Source of the DNA: Nanobdellota archaeon
GTDB taxonomy: Archaea > Nanobdellota > Nanobdellia > SCGC-AAA011-G17 > JACPNG01
DNA: 32,604 nucleotides
Direction: 5' to 3'
Assembly (NCBI GenBank): GCA_038046345.1
Contig: JBBSWJ010000035.1
Span: 1 to 32,604 of the forward strand
Position numbers and translations under genes: made by a program. How positions within the stretch are numbered: position 1 is the stretch's first letter; each line of letters opens with the position of its first letter. Shown here piece after piece: positions 17,150-32,604 of the stretch. The notes below the pieces were generated by a model. The model was not told where the DNA came from, did no database searches, and saw only the letters and a program-made list of their open reading frames with translations.

Positions 17150-17559
17150 AGTTATTTAGAGTTTTCTCAACAGCAGTAAGCGTAGTAGTAATTGACCAGA
17201 TAGTTAAGTTTTTAGTAAGATACTACAGGCCGGATTACCCGCTGATAACAATAACCAGCAATACCGGTGCAGCATTCGGTCTTTTTAAGAATAATTCTAA
17301 TTTATTGATGATCATTGGTATTGCAGCGTCAATAGTATTGATTATACTTGCATTTAAACTCCCAAAAAAAGAAAAACTAGCCCATTATAGCTTAGGGCTA
17401 TTTTTAGGCGGTGCAATTGGAAATGTAATTGACAGGCTATTATTTGGCGGGGTATTAGACTTTATTGATCTGCATTTCTGGCCAATATTTAATATAGCTG
17501 ACGCTGCAAATATGATCGGGGCAATAGGTTTGGTATACTATCTTCACAAGAAAAAGTGA
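17146..17559 (+). CDS. lspA: Lipoprotein signal peptidase (signal peptidase II)
   Basis: DQIVK, NTGAAFG, GGAIGNVIDR, VLDFI and FNIADA, including both catalytic Asp; hydrophobic segments. Confidence 0.93.
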   Translation: MKLFRVFSTAVSVVVIDQIVKFLVRYYRPDYPLITITSNTGAAFGLFKNNSNLLMIIGIAASIVLIILAFKLPKKEKLAHYSLGLFLGGAIGNVIDRLLFGGVLDFIDLHFWPIFNIADAANMIGAIGLVYYLHKKK

Positions 17560-18329: not shown

Positions 18330-18932
18330 TCACTCGGGGGTAAAATCTTCAATGGTTTCTTTCATGTCTTCATCTTTTTTTATTAAACCACGACTTTTCA
18401 TATATTCTTTTGTAAGTATATAAAAAAATAGGGCAAGACTCTTCTTACCTTTATTATTGCCTGGCACAACTAAATCAATATTATTTGCCTCATTGTTAGT
18501 ATCACATAAAGCAATTATTGGTATACCTACTTTGACAGCATCATTGACAGCATTTTTATCAGGCCACGGATCAACAACAAATATTAGTTTAGCTTCAGTA
18601 AAAGTATCAAGCGCAGGATTTGTTAAAGTTCCTGGTGGGTATCTCCCGCTTACGACACGTATTCCTGTCAGCTTAGAAAACAAGTTAACAGATTTATGTC
18701 CATTTTCTCTTCTGCATACAACAATTATATCATTAGGTTCATATCTGGAAATAAACTTTGTAGCAATTTCAAGGCGATCATTAATTTTTTGAACATTTAA
18801 CACAGATAGACCATCTGGGCGGACTTTGTAGATAAAGTCTTTCATATATGCTGTGCGGAACTTTGTGCCTATATGCACTCCGCTCTTCAAATAACTGTCC
18901 AATGGCACTAATAACTTTTCTTCATCACTCAT
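18330..18932 (-). CDS. rps2: 30S ribosomal protein S2
   Basis: GVHIGTK, RYPPGTLTNP, DP..D.NAV.DA and ALCDTNN..NNIDLVVPGNNKG. Confidence 0.97.
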   Translation of the reverse strand: MSDEEKLLVPLDSYLKSGVHIGTKFRTAYMKDFIYKVRPDGLSVLNVQKINDRLEIATKFISRYEPNDIIVVCRRENGHKSVNLFSKLTGIRVVSGRYPPGTLTNPALDTFTEAKLIFVVDPWPDKNAVNDAVKVGIPIIALCDTNNEANNIDLVVPGNNKGKKSLALFFYILTKEYMKSRGLIKKDEDMKETIEDFTPE

Positions 18933-18982: not shown

Positions 18983-20074
18983 ATGCTTACAGATATAGCA
19001 AAAAAAGAACTTGAAAAACAACAATACAGGATAATTGGAAGTCACAGCGCAGTAAAAACTTGTGGTTGGACAAAGAGTATGATTCGAGGGAACGGTGGAT
19101 GTTATAAATTAAAATTTTACGGGATAATGAGCAATCAGTGTATGCAAATGACTACGAGTATTAGTTGCGCAAATAGATGTACATTCTGTTGGAGGGGATT
19201 CAAAGCTCCAGTATCCAAAGAATGGAAATGGGATATTGACAATCCAAATTTTATATTTGAAAAAAGTTTAGATGCACATCATAAATTATTGGTTGGATTT
19301 AAGGGCGGTAAGCATACAAATCAAGCAGCATATAAAAAATCACAGAACATAAAACATGTGGCTTTATCATTAACCGGTGAACCGATTACTTATCCCAGGA
19401 TAAACGAGTTAATAACTAGATTTAACAAAGAAGGAATATCAACTTTTATGGTTACAAACGCCCAATACCCGGAACAGATTAAAAGTTTACAAATGGTAAC
19501 CCAGCTTTACTTAAGCTTGGATGCTCCAATAAAAAGCTTATTGCAAAAAGTAGACTTACCACTTTTTTCTGATTATTGGAGTAGATTGCTAAAAAGTCTT
19601 GATTATTTAAAAAATAGAAAGGAAAGAACATGTATTAGGCTAACTTTGATAAAAGGATTAAACATGATCGCTCACAAAGAATATGCAGAATTAATAACAC
19701 GTGGATCACCAGATTTTATTGAAGCAAAGGCATACATGCATGTTGGGGAATCAAAAGAACGTTTAATGATTGAGAATATGCCACTCCATCAGGATGTTGT
19801 AGATTTTAGTAAAGAGCTTGTAACATTTCTGCCTAGCTATGAAATTGTGTCAGAGCATATACCATCAAGAGTTGTATTGATTGCTAAAAAAACATTTAAA
19901 AAAAATGGTAAGTGGACTACATGGATTGACTTCAAAAAATATCACGAATTAGTAAACTCAGGAAAAGAATTTAAAGCAGAAGACTACCTTAAAACTACTC
20001 CAAGCACCGGGCTAAGTGGTGAGAACACTATAGTCAATGAAAAAACAGAGGAGTTGGCATTTTATGGAAGTTGA
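18983..20074 (+). CDS. taw1: 4-demethylwyosine synthase (TYW1/Taw1), radical SAM
   Basis: HSAVKTCGWT, GGCYKLKFYGI.S.QC, CANRCTFCWR (CX3CX2C), ALSLTGEP and EAKAY. Confidence 0.93.
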   Translation: MLTDIAKKELEKQQYRIIGSHSAVKTCGWTKSMIRGNGGCYKLKFYGIMSNQCMQMTTSISCANRCTFCWRGFKAPVSKEWKWDIDNPNFIFEKSLDAHHKLLVGFKGGKHTNQAAYKKSQNIKHVALSLTGEPITYPRINELITRFNKEGISTFMVTNAQYPEQIKSLQMVTQLYLSLDAPIKSLLQKVDLPLFSDYWSRLLKSLDYLKNRKERTCIRLTLIKGLNMIAHKEYAELITRGSPDFIEAKAYMHVGESKERLMIENMPLHQDVVDFSKELVTFLPSYEIVSEHIPSRVVLIAKKTFKKNGKWTTWIDFKKYHELVNSGKEFKAEDYLKTTPSTGLSGENTIVNEKTEELAFYGS

Positions 20075-23472: not shown

Positions 23473-23712
23473 ATGCCAGAGCCAATACTTTATCAATATG
23501 AGTTTTGCCCATACTGTATGAGGGTGCGTGATAGACTTGCAGAAAAAAAAATATCTTATAAAAAAGTAAATGTTTCAACAGACTTAAATGATCCAATAAG
23601 AAAAAAACTGCTAAAAGAAAGTGGGGTGAACACAGTTCCAGTATTGCAGATTGGAGACAAATACATTGGTGGATCACAGAAGATTATTGATTACCTGGAA
23701 GAAAGTTATTGA
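23473..23712 (+). CDS. Dithiol glutaredoxin
   Basis: CPYC active site; TVPVL and IGGS motifs; 79 aa. Confidence 0.92.
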   Translation: MPEPILYQYEFCPYCMRVRDRLAEKKISYKKVNVSTDLNDPIRKKLLKESGVNTVPVLQIGDKYIGGSQKIIDYLEESY

Positions 23713-24580
23713 GTTCTGTTTGATCAAAGCAGTATAGTAAATCTGATGGCAGTTTAAATTCAGCGTCTAACTCCTTTAATTTATTAATCATAGAATCAAA
23801 ACTCTTGTATTTTGTAGGATCTATATTGCCTTCTCCATCTAAATAATCTTGTGGGTGTACTGTTATAACACAAATATTTCTAAGTTCTAAACTTTGCTTA
23901 CATCTGTTTATTATAGTATTTACTGAAACTAATACTTGTTCATCTGAGCTAAATGTTTCTGCATTTTCACCTAGATAGAATAATCCACCATCAAACTTAA
24001 GCTCATCTTTTGCTGCTGAGATTACTTTGAATCCTAATCTTCTTAATGCAAAAGTAGTTCCTTTTGAATAAACATTATAAGGGGGGACAAAGGTAACTGG
24101 ATAAATCCCAAGTTCAGAAAATATAATACTCTGTCCTTCCTTTAAGCGATTATACGCATCATTCTCACTTAAATCTTTAAATTCTTCCACTAAGTGTAAT
24201 ACTCCATGTTGAGCAACCTCGAATCGAGGGTTATCTATATTATTTTTAACAAATTCTTTAAGTTCATCATCATTCTCTATCCCTTCAGGTATAACCCCTA
24301 TAAAGATTGCTAAGCCATTATTCAAAACTTTATTGATTAAATCAAATCTTATCTTTCTATAAATATTAGCTCCTATATCATCTAGCCGAATTAATATGGT
24401 AGGATCATCAGGTAATAATGGGATGCAACTAAACTTTTCATGAATGTTATCTTTTGGTGATATTATCACTATGTCTTTTTTTGGTAGGTCTATTACGAAA
24501 TTGAAAGCTAAAGTAAAAAACACTAAAGCAAACAAGAAGAACATTATTAGCATACTAAACAAAATCTTTTTTTTAATCAT
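23684..24580 (-). CDS. Membrane-anchored polysaccharide deacetylase (CE4/NodB-like, DUF2334-like)
   Basis: N-terminal TM helix; IRLDD, QHG..H, FVPPYN and VHPQD motifs; ATGA overlap with the GT2 gene. Confidence 0.85.
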   Translation of the reverse strand: MIKKKILFSMLIMFFLFALVFFTLAFNFVIDLPKKDIVIISPKDNIHEKFSCIPLLPDDPTILIRLDDIGANIYRKIRFDLINKVLNNGLAIFIGVIPEGIENDDELKEFVKNNIDNPRFEVAQHGVLHLVEEFKDLSENDAYNRLKEGQSIIFSELGIYPVTFVPPYNVYSKGTTFALRRLGFKVISAAKDELKFDGGLFYLGENAETFSSDEQVLVSVNTIINRCKQSLELRNICVITVHPQDYLDGEGNIDPTKYKSFDSMINKLKELDAEFKLPSDLLYCFDQTELNNFLPGNQ

Positions 24581-25851
24581 CTTGTACCCCACGCCATATT
24601 TTTTAGGTCATAAAGTGCATAAATTAAGATATAGGAGAATATTGTCATATTAAGTACAGACCACAAAAACATGTACTTACCATACTTGCGGTCTTCTTCT
24701 TTTACATATATGTTAAAATGAATGAATAATAATAATGATACTAACATAATCCCCCCCACATAAGCAATTGGCATTATCCCTAATATCAGCGGGGATATTA
24801 TCAGTGCTTTAAACGCAATAAACGGGGTTAATAATGTAAGTACAATCAATGGTACAAAATAAGTAATTGCAACAAATGGTTCTTTCATAACAATAAATTT
24901 TAGTATGCCCATGGAATTTAGGAACCAACCTTTCTTCCAACGTATTTGTTGTTTAACAAAAGTTTTAATATCATCAGGAACAACAGTATAAGCTTCTGCA
25001 TCATCAACATAAATAGTCTTAAATCTTTGTCTTAACATATGATTAGTTAAACCACGGTCATCCCCGAAGGTAATATGTTTTCCCATAAACTTTTCATCTA
25101 ACCAGTCATCTAAGATTGGCAACACATAAGATTTTCTATAAGCAGAAAAACATCCAGAACAACAAAATACCATATCAAATATACTTTCTGTAGCTTTTAA
25201 TGCTCTAAACGACATAAAGTAATAAGCTGTTTGCATCTTTGTCAGAATATTCTTATCCTTATTAGCCGGTAAAGTATGCCCCACACTTGCCCCCACACTT
25301 TTATCTTTTAACGGGCTAATTATTTTTTTAAGAGCACTACGTTCTAAATAGCTGTCACTATCTAACTGTATGATAATTTCTCCTTTTGCTTTCCTAAACC
25401 CCTCAGCCATACCATGACGCTTGCCTCTATTTTTTTCCCAATTAACTATCGTAACATCATGACCTTTTAATGCAGACTTAGCCCTCAACATTTCTTTTAA
25501 AGTATTATCTGTTGATCCATCATTAATTGCTATTACTTCAATCTTATTCTTATCATAATCAACATCAAAACAAGTAGTTATTGTTTTGTATATAACTGCT
25601 TCTTCATTCTTGCATGGAATCACAAACGTAACTGCTGGAGCGTAAGAATTTGTTTTTTGATGATCAGGTAATGAATAAAAAAATGAACCTATAACCCTGC
25701 TAAACATAAATGTAGTGATTACAATTGTGTAAATAAATAATACACTCTTATAACTTGAGAATGAAACAGCCTTAAGCAAAATTATACCAAAAATAACAGC
25801 AGCTACTAAAACAGAATAAATTATTATTTTTATGGAGTTATGATTTTCCAT
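24577..25851 (-). CDS. Processive GT2 polysaccharide synthase (hyaluronan synthase/NodC-like)
   Basis: INDGSTD, GKRHG, DSD, CCSGCFSAYR, GDDRGLTN and QQIRW motifs; N- and C-terminal TM helices. Confidence 0.9.
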   Translation of the reverse strand: MENHNSIKIIIYSVLVAAVIFGIILLKAVSFSSYKSVLFIYTIVITTFMFSRVIGSFFYSLPDHQKTNSYAPAVTFVIPCKNEEAVIYKTITTCFDVDYDKNKIEVIAINDGSTDNTLKEMLRAKSALKGHDVTIVNWEKNRGKRHGMAEGFRKAKGEIIIQLDSDSYLERSALKKIISPLKDKSVGASVGHTLPANKDKNILTKMQTAYYFMSFRALKATESIFDMVFCCSGCFSAYRKSYVLPILDDWLDEKFMGKHITFGDDRGLTNHMLRQRFKTIYVDDAEAYTVVPDDIKTFVKQQIRWKKGWFLNSMGILKFIVMKEPFVAITYFVPLIVLTLLTPFIAFKALIISPLILGIMPIAYVGGIMLVSLLLFIHFNIYVKEEDRKYGKYMFLWSVLNMTIFSYILIYALYDLKNMAWGTR

Positions 25852-25852
25852 T

Positions 25853-27121
25853 TCATCTTCTTCCAACGCCCAGATAAACTATGCCCTCTGCTTTAATACC
25901 TTTTTTATCAAATTTATTTTCTCCGTCTACAAATACTTTCACTTTATGACTGGTTAATAATTTAGGTGTCACTTGTTCGACTAATTGTTTATGCGCAGTT
26001 CCTACTAAAACAGCTGATGCTCCATTGATTGCATCTTCAAGAGTTTCTTTATTAGACATCTTCGGTACATGAGGGTCAAAGGTCCTTATTCTGCCACCTT
26101 TTCTTTTTAAAATTTTTATAATTTCTAATACAGGACTCTCTCTAACATCACTAACCTCTGGTTTATATGCCAAACCAAGCACTGCAATTTCTGTGTTTTT
26201 CACCGGTAAGTTAATTTGATTTAATCCATCTTGGACAAGCTCAGCTGTATATTCAGGCATGCCATTATTTATTTTTCTTGCAGCCATTAACAAATGATGT
26301 TCGAATCCATTTCTTTCTAAAGCACGTTTTATTAAATATTCAGGATCAACAGCAATACAATGACCACCTACACCCCTGCCTGGATTAACTTTAACGAAAC
26401 CAAACGGTTTTGTTCCAGCAGCATCAAGCACCTCAGAAGCATCTAACCCCCACCTAACAATGGACATAGCAATTTCGTTAGCCCACGCAATTAAAGTATC
26501 TCTTTGAGCGTTTTCTATAACTTTTGAGGCTTCTGCCGCCATTAATGAACTAATTTGTATAATTTTAGCATTGATTATTGAACTATAAAATTTTACTGCT
26601 TTATCTAAACTTTCAGGATTTAAAGCACCTACAACTCTTGAGATATTACCTACATAATAAACTGCATTTCCTGGGTCTATACGTTCTGGGCAATATGCTA
26701 AGAAGAAGGTATTTCTATTCTTTCGCAAAGCTGGCAAAACAATTTCTTCTGATACTCCAGGATATACTGTTGATTCCAAACATACAAGCGCTCCTGATTT
26801 TAGGTTTGCTGACACTTGCTCAGCAGCAGACTTCACAAATCTTAGATCTGGTTTTCTATTCTCGTCTAGTGGGGTTGGTACACATATGGTTACAATATCA
26901 GCATTTGACACCATCCTAAAATCTGTAGTAAATCCTACATTTGAAACACGAAGCTTTTCTCCGAGCCCATCATCTAAGAAAGGTAAAACTTTTCTGTTTA
27001 ATAGTGTAATCTTATCAGAATCTGTGTCAACTCCAATAACATTATATCCTTTTTGTTCAGCTAGCAAAGCAAGAGGCAACCCTACATACCCTGTTCCTAC
27101 AACTGCTAAAGTTTGTATCAT
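25853..27121 (-). CDS. Nucleotide-sugar dehydrogenase (UDP-GlcNAc/ManNAc dehydrogenase, WecC/WbpA-like)
   Basis: VGTGYVGLP, CVPTP, LESTVYPG, PERIDPGN, GVGGHCI (catalytic Cys) and LGLAYKP..D.RESP; alternative start at 27151. Confidence 0.93.
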   Translation of the reverse strand: MIQTLAVVGTGYVGLPLALLAEQKGYNVIGVDTDSDKITLLNRKVLPFLDDGLGEKLRVSNVGFTTDFRMVSNADIVTICVPTPLDENRKPDLRFVKSAAEQVSANLKSGALVCLESTVYPGVSEEIVLPALRKNRNTFFLAYCPERIDPGNAVYYVGNISRVVGALNPESLDKAVKFYSSIINAKIIQISSLMAAEASKVIENAQRDTLIAWANEIAMSIVRWGLDASEVLDAAGTKPFGFVKVNPGRGVGGHCIAVDPEYLIKRALERNGFEHHLLMAARKINNGMPEYTAELVQDGLNQINLPVKNTEIAVLGLAYKPEVSDVRESPVLEIIKILKRKGGRIRTFDPHVPKMSNKETLEDAINGASAVLVGTAHKQLVEQVTPKLLTSHKVKVFVDGENKFDKKGIKAEGIVYLGVGRR

Positions 27122-27282
27122 GTTATCCCTATAATTGTTTAGCTGATTCACTTTTTGGGGTATATAAACCTTACTACTGACACTACTTTCAAGAGGTCAC
27201 ATAGGCACTTTACAAACCTAATTCATCAAAAATACCACTCCCCCCAAACAACTTAAAAACAATCAAAAAAAGTAAGTGATAC

Positions 27283-27648
27283 ATGGCAGACAAAACTATT
27301 TCATCTGAAGAATTAGAGCGTTTAATAGACCTAAACAAAAGTTACATCTTAATTGATGTACGCGAGCCATATGAAGTAGAATCATACGGAGCAATCCCAA
27401 CCTCGCATAACATCCCGCTAGACGAGATTAAAGAAGCTTTAAATCTTCAACCAATAGAATTTGAAATTAAATACCATTTTAAAAAACCAACAAATAATAG
27501 TTTGCTAATCTTTCATTGCCGCAGTGGCTCAAGAAGCCAAGTAGCTACTGAACTAGCGCTATCCCTTGGTTTTAATGCTAAAAATTATCAAGGTAGCATT
27601 CTTGAATGGGCAGATATGCACCCAGATGGAGATGTCATAAAATATTAA
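27283..27648 (+). CDS. Rhodanese-like domain protein
   Basis: LIDVREP.E, FHCRSGSRS active loop and YQGSILEW. Confidence 0.92.
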   Translation: MADKTISSEELERLIDLNKSYILIDVREPYEVESYGAIPTSHNIPLDEIKEALNLQPIEFEIKYHFKKPTNNSLLIFHCRSGSRSQVATELALSLGFNAKNYQGSILEWADMHPDGDVIKY

Positions 27649-29282
27649 CCATGCGAATACCAAAACAATAACTTATTTTTTTCTTTTTTATCAAGTCTGC
27701 AAAATCCAAACCGATAAAACTGTACAACTATTCCTTCCTTTAGGTTAGTTAGTGATTTTTCCCCTAAACCTTCTACTTTTTTCCCGTTAGGCATCAAAAC
27801 TTCTACTTTTACATTCTTATCATTTGCTGGTAACCAATGTATTAACTGAGCATGTAAAGATGGATCATGTTCCTCGCTAACAAATATTTTATTTTTAAAA
27901 TTAAATAAGTGCATTAATCTATAGACTTTATTATTAATTAATTTATCATTGATATAAAAATCTCCTTTTGTATTGAATATCTTTCCGCCACGCCTCTTAT
28001 ACTCTGGATGTAATGGCACGGTCACTCTCATTGCTGGAGCATTTTTTATTGTTATCTTTTTAGGATCTTCCACAAAGAAATATCGATTAGCTTTTTTATC
28101 CAGCAACTGCCTATTAAACGCTGCAATCTTCTCTACGGACACATTAATCTCATTCTTGTTTAATCCAGCATCTTTCATAAAATTCACTATTGTTTCGGCT
28201 AATATCCCCCTTCTTCTTAATGCCATTAAAGTTCCTAACTGTATATCATCCCATCCGCTTATCTTTTTAGTTCGTATTAACTCTGCAGCTTCGCTTGTGC
28301 TCTTTACTCCATCAAAATTCAGCTTTCCAGTGTATATAGTTTCTGGATAGTCTAAACTATAATTTTTAAAAATATACTCTTGCCGCTCACTGCTCACTTT
28401 CAAATCAATACCCCGTATTATGTGAGTTACACCAAACTCCATGTCGTCTATTGCAGATGCAAAATTTAAAAGTGGCCAAATTCTTTTATTTTTTATTAGT
28501 GCATGCTTTGGATGATCTATTATTCTCAATGCAGGCCAGTCTCTCACAGCAGGATTTTTTTCATTTAAGTCTGTTTTTATTCTAACTACTGCATGACCTT
28601 CCTTATATTTATTTAGAAATTTATTCCATTCTAATACTTGTCTTTCTGCTGACTCTTCTCTGCATGCACAGCTTAATCCTTTTATTAGAAGTTTTCTCTT
28701 TTGCTCTGTTTCACATCGGCATACATAAGCCTTACCAAGTGTAATTAATTCTTTGGCATACTTGTAATATGTTACAAGTCTTTTTGATTGGATTACTATC
28801 TTATCTGGTTTTATGCCCAGCCATTTTAAATCTTTCTTAATCCATTCATATGCCTCTTTCAATGGGGGTTTTACTTTTGGATCAGTATCATCAAATCTTA
28901 AAATAAACTCTCCTTTGTACTTTTCCTTAAACAGCCAGTTCAATACAGCCTGTCTTGCATGCCCGAAATGCAACGGGCCATTTGGGTTTGGTGCAAATCT
29001 TACTATCACTTTTTTTTTAGGATTTTTAAGTTCAGGAAGCACAAAAACATCAGACTTCTTTTTAACCTCTTCGACTACCCCATATTTATCTAATTCTTCT
29101 TTTTGCTTTTCAAAAGGTATCTTATTTATTTCATTGCATACCTGATTTACAAGTTTTATAATTTCTTGTCCCTTTTTTTCTGGATGTTCAGCAAATAATC
29201 TTCCTATAACCGCTCCAGCATTTACTTTACCACCATATTTTACAGCGTTTTGCAATGCTAGTTTACGGATTATATCATGCAT
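27645..29282 (-). CDS. gltX: Glutamate--tRNA ligase (archaeal type)
   Basis: ALQNAVKYGG N-terminal domain; RFAPNPNGPLHFGH, LRFDDTDP, THIIRG.D and QFYRFGF. Confidence 0.96.
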   Translation of the reverse strand: MHDIIRKLALQNAVKYGGKVNAGAVIGRLFAEHPEKKGQEIIKLVNQVCNEINKIPFEKQKEELDKYGVVEEVKKKSDVFVLPELKNPKKKVIVRFAPNPNGPLHFGHARQAVLNWLFKEKYKGEFILRFDDTDPKVKPPLKEAYEWIKKDLKWLGIKPDKIVIQSKRLVTYYKYAKELITLGKAYVCRCETEQKRKLLIKGLSCACREESAERQVLEWNKFLNKYKEGHAVVRIKTDLNEKNPAVRDWPALRIIDHPKHALIKNKRIWPLLNFASAIDDMEFGVTHIIRGIDLKVSSERQEYIFKNYSLDYPETIYTGKLNFDGVKSTSEAAELIRTKKISGWDDIQLGTLMALRRRGILAETIVNFMKDAGLNKNEINVSVEKIAAFNRQLLDKKANRYFFVEDPKKITIKNAPAMRVTVPLHPEYKRRGGKIFNTKGDFYINDKLINNKVYRLMHLFNFKNKIFVSEEHDPSLHAQLIHWLPANDKNVKVEVLMPNGKKVEGLGEKSLTNLKEGIVVQFYRFGFCRLDKKEKNKLLFWYSHG

Positions 29283-30409: not shown

Positions 30410-30784
30410 CTACATTAGACTAGGGCGTAAAGTACTTAACTCGTTAAAAATATCTGAACAATGAGGAAGAGCATCAAAATTATTCTCTGGATCAAATCCA
30501 CACCTAAAATTAGAACCAGAAACAAACTGCCTTAGCCTTCGAAATACTACTTCACCTAAAACGCCCTCTAAACGATCTAAACTAGGTTTTTTACCTTCTA
30601 AAAGCAATTCTTCGATGCTAACTGAGTAATTACTAATAAGCCTTTTTTCATATAAAATTTCATCGATCTCGGCGCCATACCAGCCCACATTTTTCTTACC
30701 TAAAGACCTTGAATAACGCTCTATTCGATACTTCGCATATTCTTCAGCTAAAGACTTGTTATTGCGTGCAACCGTTATTACCAT
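30410..30784 (-). CDS. Hypothetical protein
   Basis: 124-aa ORF filling the gap between two genes; no motif. Confidence 0.5.
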   Translation of the reverse strand: MVITVARNNKSLAEEYAKYRIERYSRSLGKKNVGWYGAEIDEILYEKRLISNYSVSIEELLLEGKKPSLDRLEGVLGEVVFRRLRQFVSGSNFRCGFDPENNFDALPHCSDIFNELSTLRPSLM

Positions 30785-30834
30785 GTTATACCAGTTTTAA
30801 CAACGTTTATAACATTTTCTATGCTTATTTCAGT

Positions 30835-31314
30835 GTGGAACATTTAAAGCGTATTAAGTCTAGCGAAGTAAAAAAGATTATCAACAGCCTTAAAGAGCAA
30901 TATGGCATAAAAAAATTAAAGTTACCATTTATTTTTTTTAAAAACTCTAAGGATTATATCTTTATAGTTTCAAAGGCGTGGGATACGGTTAATATTAAAG
31001 ATATTAGAGTTAATAACATAGGTCTTTACTTTGCTAACGTAAAAACCAATGCTATAAGATTAACCATTGAAGGTTCACAACTTCTAGGTCCTATGATAAA
31101 GAAAAATATTGTTGATGTGTCAAAGGATGAAATTTCTGATTGGATACGTGGAGAATCATTAAATAAAAAAATTTCTTCTAATTGTTTTGTAGTTATTCGT
31201 AATAATAATGATTACTTTGGATGCGGAAGAAAACACGATGACATGATTGCTAATTTCATCCCAAAAAGCAGAAAAATTAAAAGTTATAACCTACCAAAGA
31301 TTAGTCCCTCATAA
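30835..31314 (+). CDS. NIP7/RsmF-C-terminal-like PUA-domain RNA-binding protein
   Basis: GLYFA...RLTIEGSQLLG...W..GE.L...GCG...NFIPK.R; GTG 30835 preferred over 30709, which overlaps the opposite ORF. Confidence 0.75.
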   Translation: MEHLKRIKSSEVKKIINSLKEQYGIKKLKLPFIFFKNSKDYIFIVSKAWDTVNIKDIRVNNIGLYFANVKTNAIRLTIEGSQLLGPMIKKNIVDVSKDEISDWIRGESLNKKISSNCFVVIRNNNDYFGCGRKHDDMIANFIPKSRKIKSYNLPKISPS

Positions 31315-32083
31315 GCAATTCTTTTCTTCTAAGGCGGTAAACCATTAATAAGCCTATTATCCCCATTGGGATAACTAATAATTGGCCCATTGTAAGCTGC
31401 CATATCACGAATCCTAACTGGGGGTCTGGTTGTCTCACAAACTCTATAAAGAATCTTAATATTCCGTATAATGCTATAAACACCCAGAATAAATAACCGT
31501 TCCTATGCTTTTTATTCTTTAGCTGCCACAATATCCCGAATATAAAAAAATTTTTAGCGGCTTCATATAACTGCGATGGGTGTCTTAATCCATCGACCCC
31601 ATTAAATTGCACAGCCCATGAAACATCAGTTATTCTGCCGTATAATTCTCCGTTTGTAAAGTTTCCAATTCTACCAAGCCCTAATCCTATTGCAGCAGGG
31701 ATCACTACTATATCAGCCAGTTGCCCAAATGATATGCCTTTTTTCTTAGCAAAAAAATAACCGCATATAATAAATCCTACAAGCCCACCATGGAAGCTTA
31801 AACCTCCGTTCCAAATATATAATATCTCTACTGGCTTGTTTAAGTAATAACTTAAATTATAAAATAATACATAAAAGATTCTTGCGCCTATAAGCATAGC
31901 AATTATTTCATAAAAAAGAAATGAACTAACATCGTCTTTTGTAAGCGGTATGTTTCTTTCTTTTGCCAGCTTATTAATTAAAAAGTAACCTATAACAAAA
32001 GCAATAACATAGAACAATCCATAATACCTTACTTCAAATGGACCATAAGAGAATAATATTGGGTCTATGTTATGCGTAAACAT
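31301..32083 (-). CDS. lgt: Prolipoprotein diacylglyceryl transferase
   Basis: RYYGL, GARIFYV, GGLSFHGG, GRIGNFTNGELYGR, HPSQLYE and RFFIEFVR. Confidence 0.96.
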   Translation of the reverse strand: MFTHNIDPILFSYGPFEVRYYGLFYVIAFVIGYFLINKLAKERNIPLTKDDVSSFLFYEIIAMLIGARIFYVLFYNLSYYLNKPVEILYIWNGGLSFHGGLVGFIICGYFFAKKKGISFGQLADIVVIPAAIGLGLGRIGNFTNGELYGRITDVSWAVQFNGVDGLRHPSQLYEAAKNFFIFGILWQLKNKKHRNGYLFWVFIALYGILRFFIEFVRQPDPQLGFVIWQLTMGQLLVIPMGIIGLLMVYRLRRKELLMRD

Positions 32084-32232
32084 AGGTTCTAACCTGATAA
32101 AATTGTTTATTAGTTTTTCGGCATTATTGGGTTTGTTTGATTGTACCTTTTTGGGGTTTGGTTGACGTTTTTAGTATTAATTTATCGGTAGTAACTATAG
32201 AGCTTTATAAGTAACATAATTATCTTTAAACT

Positions 32233-32604
32233 ATGGAAAATGAAGATCTAGATTATAAGGGTTGTTTACGCTATCTAGAAACCGGCGAAATTACAGCTGA
32301 GGAAGAAGAAAAACTGAGAGATATACATAAAACTATTGTGCAGCTAATTGGAGACAAAGAATTGCTAGAGGCCGTAATCGCACATGGGGAGCCTATAACT
32401 TTTGCAGCATCTGATCGCAATACGGTGAATAATCGTTTCATTCTCAATGGATACAGGCACTTGGTGATTGATCCAAGGACTGGTCTAAACATTGTTATGA
32501 GAAGATTAAATTTCTTTAAAACCGATATTACTGAAACTCACAATTCCCATTACCCTTTATACGTAAAAGATAAAAAAGTATATTTTGATGGTGATGAGCA
32601 TAAA
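32233..32604 (+). CDS. Hypothetical protein, truncated by the window end
   Basis: ATG 32233 opens a frame (MENEDLDYKGCLRYLETGE...) with no stop before the window edge. Confidence 0.6.
   Translation, partial: MENEDLDYKGCLRYLETGEITAEEEEKLRDIHKTIVQLIGDKELLEAVIAHGEPITFAASDRNTVNNRFILNGYRHLVIDPRTGLNIVMRRLNFFKTDITETHNSHYPLYVKDKKVYFDGDEHK

Follow-up and report, generated by a model that had tools for sequence, protein, structure and literature searches.

Archaea have been stated to possess no homologues of the lipoprotein enzymes Lgt, Lsp, and Lnt (PMC6098224, FEMS Microbiol Rev 2018; PMC12462473, Nat Commun 2025; PMC13631571, J Biol Chem Aug 2026), and domain-specific membrane lipids are given there as the reason. 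The archaeal lipoprotein lipidation enzyme of Haloferax volcanii, AliA, is HVO_2859 (PMC12462473), whose annotation is DUF63 (PMC9426492). The family PF01889 (AliA/DUF63) was therefore taken to mark the archaeal lipidation enzyme. AliA and AliB of H. volcanii (arCOG02177) share with Lgt the presumed role, lipidation of the lipobox cysteine (PMC12462473), but the AliA family is unrelated to Lgt or only marginally similar to it. A literature search for DPANN and Woesearchaeota revealed no report of Lgt or signal peptidase II. The DNA analysed here, the window, is the complete contig JBBSWJ010000035.1 of 32,604 nt from a Nanobdellota archaeon. An initial annotation made from its letters alone had proposed genes for bacterial-type lipoprotein lipidation in an archaeon, and this proved correct: an intact Lgt and an LspA are encoded and native to this DPANN genome. 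As an enzyme, this Lgt is canonical; of interest are the archaeal host, the lineage-wide pairing with LspA and the lipoprotein intramolecular transacylase Lit, and the exclusion of AliA. The published record should be corrected to include a large archaeal lineage with intact Lgt, LspA, and often Lit, instead of AliA. The reading that best fits all observations, with a probability of roughly 0.8, is a working bacterial-type Lgt-LspA-Lit pathway using a scavenged, most likely ester-linked lipid.

The gene lgt (31301..32083, minus strand) specifies a prolipoprotein diacylglyceryl transferase of 260 aa. It matched PF01790 with 254.7 bits (cut-off 24.9) over profile positions 1-239 of 240 and TIGR00544 with 220.5 bits (cut-off 118.9). 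The three motifs quoted in the initial annotation are present in this full-length protein: GGLSFHGG containing H98, GRIGNFTNGELYG at residues 137-149, and RHPSQLYE at 167-174. The second one corresponds to G142-R-L-G-N-F-I-N-G-E-L-W-G154 of Escherichia coli Lgt and includes R143, N146, E151, and G154. Comparison with the E. coli enzyme, whose structures are PDB 5AZB and 5AZC (161 bits by phmmer against 5AZB), was extended to 18 residues that belong to the catalytic centre or its hydrogen-bond network or are mutation-intolerant according to Mao et al. 2016 (PMC4728403). All 18 are kept in the alignment to 5AZB (archaeal residue first): Y21=Y26, G22=G27, Y25=Y30, S96=S101, F97=F102, H98=H103, G133=G138, G137=G142, R138=R143, G140=G145, N141=N146, N144=N149, E146=E151, E174=E202, Y207=Y235, R211=R239, E215=E243, and R218=R246. 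Two additional conserved positions, H168=H196 and G149=G154, were mapped as well. Most of the mapped residues, among them R138, N141, E146, and G149, are invariant across 13 aligned Lgt sequences with 34-61% identity. The inactive enzyme that the initial annotation had considered is thus not apparent from the residues checked, and Lgt is predicted to be catalytically working.

An AlphaFold2 model of Lgt (predicted local distance difference test 87.8, predicted template modelling score 0.86) had 5AZB as its sole Foldseek match in the PDB at E<=0.001, with template modelling scores of 0.78/0.72; the model thus predicts the seven-transmembrane Lgt fold. Over the structural alignment, identity to E. 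coli Lgt is 34%, and GRxGNFxNGExxG, HGGL, Y26, and the R239/E243/R246 network are held in common. The archaeal protein differs in its periplasmic head domain, shorter by about 20 aa (E. coli residues 166-183 are without counterpart) and in the poorly conserved L6-7/TM7 region, where W256 and Y259 are out of register. It also differs in its host, an archaeon without detected phospholipid-synthesis genes. Upstream of lgt, a 149-nt A+T-rich intergenic region (32084..32232, minus strand), divergent from an open reading frame (ORF) at 32233..32604, is the presumed promoter region.

The second gene, lspA (17146..17559, plus strand), encodes a lipoprotein signal peptidase II of 137 aa that matched PF01252 with 106.2 bits and TIGR00077 with 88.8 bits (cut-off 73.95). 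Both aspartates of the dyad are kept, D96 in GNVIDR and D119 in FNIADA. They align to the aspartates of GNLYDR and FNLADS in Pseudomonas aeruginosa LspA (5DIR), which we take to be the catalytic D124 and D143. Genes for the first two steps of the pathway are therefore located in the window, as had been claimed. Profile searches in 14 control genomes, from ten bacteria and four archaea (M. jannaschii, H. volcanii, S. acidocaldarius, M. acetivorans), detected Lgt and LspA in 10/10 bacteria and 0/4 archaea.

A homologue of Lit, 205 aa in size, is encoded on another contig of the same genome (G000:C21:28162-28779; PF07314, 78 bits, cut-off 24). To our knowledge, Lit is otherwise known from Firmicutes, and Lactococcus lactis was the only one of the control genomes with a match. 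Aligned to Bacillus cereus Lit (7B0O), the archaeal protein shows the equivalences H74=H85, H146=H153, F150=F157, and W155=W162, and D88 and V89 are also kept. The roles of these residues, the catalytic histidine dyad included, were described for the B. cereus enzyme, which moves an acyl chain held at sn-2 by an ester bond (PMC8275575). The archaeal homologues share the catalytic residues of B. cereus Lit and P. aeruginosa LspA but are short. In related genomes, Lit genes lie close to their partners: on the same strand about 40-50 nt from Lgt (G023) or LspA (G021, G041), about 90 nt from Lgt in G150, divergent beside Lgt in G001 and G011, and 1.4-3.4 kb from Lgt in nine further genomes. Directly downstream of the Lit homologue of genome G000, an ORF for a glutaredoxin-like protein of 77 aa with the motif CPWC was found (L017:2122-2355).

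The distribution of these genes was determined in three sets of genomes; related genomes are not independent, and the counts describe a pattern rather than a statistical test. Among 61 relatives from the same family and order (G000 counted), some of them single-contig genomes, Lgt was detected in 54, LspA in 58, and Lit in 38, and all 35 high-quality genomes of this set contain LspA. A phylum-level sample contained Lgt in 264/301 genomes; two of these Lgt-positive genomes, G283 and G284, are unpublished, and no other result rests on them. The third set, a class-level sample of 121 genomes, was drawn differently and contains more genomes from other orders. Here, 50 genomes carry Lgt, 40 AliA/DUF63, and 31 neither; both were never found together (0/90 carriers). 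PF01889 was found neither in G000 nor in any of the 50 Lgt-positive genomes, while three euryarchaeal controls matched. Lit was predicted in 37 of the 121 genomes, 35 with Lgt, two with AliA, and none with neither. Five near-complete genomes of this class that have no Lgt, two of them AliA carriers, also yielded no LspA. Lgt and LspA thus occur together and are missing together, which points to functional coupling.

Some relatives contain, beside the canonical copy, extra and much more divergent Lgt paralogues (73-134 bits), namely G034, G239, G062 (C11), and G065 (C5). In total, four Lgt matches were counted in G034 (C7, C14, C36, C47) and six in G239.

The nearest bacterial Lgt sequences, from Desulfobacterota (Syntrophaceae, Geobacter), Nitrospirota, and Gammaproteobacteria, show 45-50% identity over the full length. 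Archaeal sequences of the same order show 41-61% identity to the Lgt of the window, the closest relative having 61%, so that Lgt of Desulfobacterota and Nitrospirota is as close as that of distant archaeal members of the order. In a tree of 79 sequences, 36 archaeal rows were split from the 42 nearest bacterial rows by one branch (SH-aLRT, the Shimodaira-Hasegawa-like approximate likelihood ratio test, 93), and a single archaeal clade was not rejected by the approximately unbiased test (p 0.384); the bacterial sample comprised the 80 sequences closest to the query, and the tree is read as unrooted. Archaeal Lgt is therefore not interleaved with its nearest bacterial relatives, and the tree agrees with an acquisition long ago and vertical inheritance since. 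A bacterial sample selected for resemblance to the query does not allow a donor lineage to be named. Clostridia L016, the one distant outgroup, sits on a long branch that joined a second such branch, L123.

Two sequences labelled "uncultured Methanosarcinales archaeon", L014 (CAYXHN010000031.1) and L027 (CAZNFZ010000191.1), with a G+C content (GC) of 0.39-0.42, carry an Lgt nested inside the DPANN group. The label is probably due to mis-binning or mislabelling; a physical association between DPANN and methanogens is a possibility.

The window holds no lipobox substrate, in agreement with the initial annotation; its sole match is an internal false positive inside TYW1. The genome-wide scan that had been recommended was performed with a regular expression similar to PROSITE PS51257 on 948 non-overlapping ORFs (91% coding density). 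It revealed 14 lipobox N-termini at first start codons, and candidate lipoproteins are thus available in this genome. For comparison, three were obtained in reversed sequences and one among 540 internal pseudo-N-termini, and shuffling of the N-termini gave 1.2 on average (maximum 6). The observed number thus lies 5- to 11-fold above the controls. Cysteine was about fivefold enriched at position +1 compared with other polar residues, relative to its abundance of 1.33%. Typical candidates are MKRGLVIVLFVLFLLGC and MKKIFILLVGILMLATAC. A cupredoxin (G000:C11:51015-51452), a MopE-like copper-binding protein, and GH53-like and GxGYxYP glycosidases are among them, plausible as surface proteins.

From genes, residues, candidate substrates, and distribution, we infer the activity of the enzymes, the order of the steps, and the chemistry and source of the lipid as follows. 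A Woesearchaeales-like DPANN lineage would have acquired lgt long ago and inherited it vertically. The 14 proteins, predicted to be exported by Sec with a signal peptide ending in a lipobox such as L-x-G-C, would serve as substrates. Lgt would attach the glyceryl-lipid part of a phosphatidylglycerol-type donor to the lipobox cysteine by a thioether bond, LspA would remove the signal peptide, and Lit would transfer the acyl chain at sn-2 to the alpha-amino group thus exposed, resulting in a lyso-form lipoprotein. The donor would most likely be ester-linked diacyl phosphatidylglycerol of the bacterial type, obtained by scavenging. On the basis of its sequences, G000 very probably has a working lipoprotein pathway; for an ester-type donor, the odds appear somewhat better than even.

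Concerning the lipid, the suggested search for synthesis genes was carried out for seven families. None of PcrB/GGGPS, UbiA, CarS, CDP-alcohol phosphatidyltransferase, PlsC-type acyltransferase, CdsA, and polyprenyl synthase was found in G000, a metagenome-assembled genome (MAG) that is 97% complete, and controls for all seven behaved as expected (0/7 in G000). Phospholipids, including the donor lipid, should therefore be scavenged. The initial annotation had left open whether Lgt accepts archaeol phospholipids or the cell uses bacterial-type lipids, and the evidence leans to the second of these, ester lipids of the bacterial type. This is favoured because Lit acts on an ester-linked acyl chain, the Lgt active site is unchanged, AliA is missing from the Lgt lineages, and GGGPS was not detected in any Lgt-positive genome of the class sample (eight of the 121 carry it, seven with AliA and one with neither). 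In the E. coli crystal structure, Y26 and R143 form hydrogen bonds to ester oxygens of phosphatidylglycerol (PMC4728403), and the equivalents of both are invariant in the aligned Lgt sequences. A bacterial host or prey, as envisaged in the initial annotation, could supply such lipids. For Woesearchaeia, modification of lipids from bacterial hosts has been proposed (PMC11868695, PMC8204110); lipoprotein enzymes are mentioned in neither paper.

The strongest alternative retains the Lgt/LspA pathway with host-derived archaetidylglycerol as the donor, leading to an archaeol thioether anchor as in haloarchaea, and assigns another role to the Lit homologue. Halobacterial lipoproteins indeed bear archaeol on the lipobox cysteine (PMC12462473), the window comes from an archaeon, and each DPANN archaeon cultivated so far has an archaeal host (PMC11291902), so that ether lipids would be supplied. 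The Methanosarcinales-labelled contigs with DPANN-type Lgt would agree with this if they reflect a physical association and not only mis-binning. In archaeal lipids, however, the stereochemistry of the glycerol is reversed and ester oxygens are lacking. The checked catalytic and phosphatidylglycerol-contacting residues are those of the bacterial enzyme, and identity to Desulfobacterota and Nitrospirota Lgt reaches the values given above. The lack of AliA and GGGPS in Lgt carriers and the tracking of Lgt by Lit with an intact histidine dyad (35/37 Lit-positive genomes) likewise argue against an ether-type donor, which we regard as unlikely, though a serious competitor.

The archaeal hosts of cultivated DPANN are one of several points that weigh against the scavenged-ester-lipid pathway. 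The two Lit genes in AliA-positive genomes without Lgt (G338:C13:9830-10354 and G345:C2:42452-42976, family f112), the only exceptions among the 121, indicate that the link between Lit and Lgt is not a strict one, that Lit may have other substrates, and that its presence need not imply ester lipids. Conservation of Y26 and R143 is no proof of ester recognition, both being needed for catalysis anyway. The lipid-synthesis genes are absent in the sense of not found at 97% completeness in a MAG of 35 contigs, and PlsC-type acyltransferases, present in 17/121 genomes, are spread over those with Lgt, with AliA, and with neither, and are thus non-discriminating. The lipobox candidates stem from a regular expression and our own ORF calls, not from SignalP. 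Finally, the exclusive pattern of Lgt and AliA may reflect only a few evolutionary events.

If the Lgt-LspA-Lit pathway does operate on ester lipids, a further step may be considered, which is tentative: the membranes of Woesearchaeales-type DPANN might consist at least in part of bacterial-type ester phospholipids from bacterial partners, and AliA might for this reason have been replaced by Lgt-LspA-Lit. Whether a DPANN genome carries Lgt or AliA would then mark its membrane lipid type, and so the domain of the host, across the DPANN lineages. For DPANN lacking lipid synthesis, the pathway offers a handle on membrane composition and on whether some hosts are bacterial. The lipid on a few predicted lipoproteins should be readable by mass spectrometry, and the enzymes can be assayed with diacyl-phosphatidylglycerol versus archaetidylglycerol.

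Two further observations concern lipids. Cyclopropane-fatty-acid synthase (PF02353) was considered as a sign of bacterial lipids and discarded; the matches are partial, with only about 30 bits, and of a generic methyltransferase type, and archaeal controls match too. In G062, a PlsC-type acyltransferase domain (G062:C1:31973-32386, minus strand) is part of an 821-aa open frame about 2.7 kb from Lgt (G062:C1:28591-29307). The protein may be an Aas-type enzyme for re-acylation of lysophospholipids, which would fit remodelling of ester lipids.

A relic, or recruitment of the Lgt homologue to another function such as a different lipid-transfer reaction, appears improbable. The divergent paralogues in G034 and G239 indicate that the family diversifies in this group, but the catalytic-centre and essential residues of the window Lgt are intact and mostly invariant, Lgt and LspA co-occur and go missing together, lipobox N-termini exceed the controls, and the gene has been retained in a genome reduced to 0.82 Mb.

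The window is the entire contig C35 of genome G000, a MAG of 821 kb in 35 contigs that is 97% complete with 0.03% contamination. Its closest named records are MAGs of Candidatus Woesearchaeota and Nanoarchaeota. Directly downstream of lspA follow genes for archaeal L11 (17647-18327, plus strand; NF002232, 198 bits), uS2 of the eukaryotic/archaeal type (18330-18932, minus strand; TIGR01012, 253.9 bits), and TYW1 (18983-20074, plus strand; TIGR03972, 347 bits), and the lspA locus is therefore native archaeal DNA. An archaeal-type glutamyl-tRNA synthetase, gltX_arch, is encoded 2 kb from lgt (27645..29282, minus strand; TIGR00463, 530 bits; NF003169, 631 bits). The GC is flat along the contig, with 0.341 for lgt and 0.34 for the genome. 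The ORF at 30709-31314, downstream of and convergent with lgt, also adjoins lgt in another genome of its family. Bacterial contamination or a chimeric contig, a concern of the initial annotation that the number of contigs and the position of lgt 521 nt from a contig end might nourish, is so improbable in view of the archaeal markers flanking both genes, the uniform GC, the low contamination estimate, the conserved neighbourhood of lgt, and the lineage-wide occurrence of Lgt, closed single-contig genomes included, that it was dismissed. The contig is archaeal and non-chimeric, and the lspA and lgt loci are native to it.

An Rfam search of the window gave no matches. Directly upstream of lspA, three small tandem ORFs of 158, about 161-179, and 163 aa (15675-17149, plus strand) are located that have no Pfam match. 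None of them has a signal peptide. Weak paralogy (25% identity, E 9e-8) connects the first with the third, and the third overlaps the start of lspA by 4 nt, which suggests co-transcription. Divergent from this cluster, a 510-aa ORF (14070-15602, minus strand) showed no Pfam family at E<=0.001; its product is charged and probably cytoplasmic. The L11 ORF downstream of lspA comprises 226 aa, of which residues 1-162 are spanned by the archaeal L11 model, leaving a C-terminal extension of about 64 aa. A possible surface-polysaccharide cluster (23684-27151, minus strand) consists of genes for a UDP-glucose/GDP-mannose dehydrogenase (25853-27151), a chitin-synthase-like family 2 glycosyltransferase (24577-25866), and a DUF2334 protein (23684-24592), all on the minus strand.

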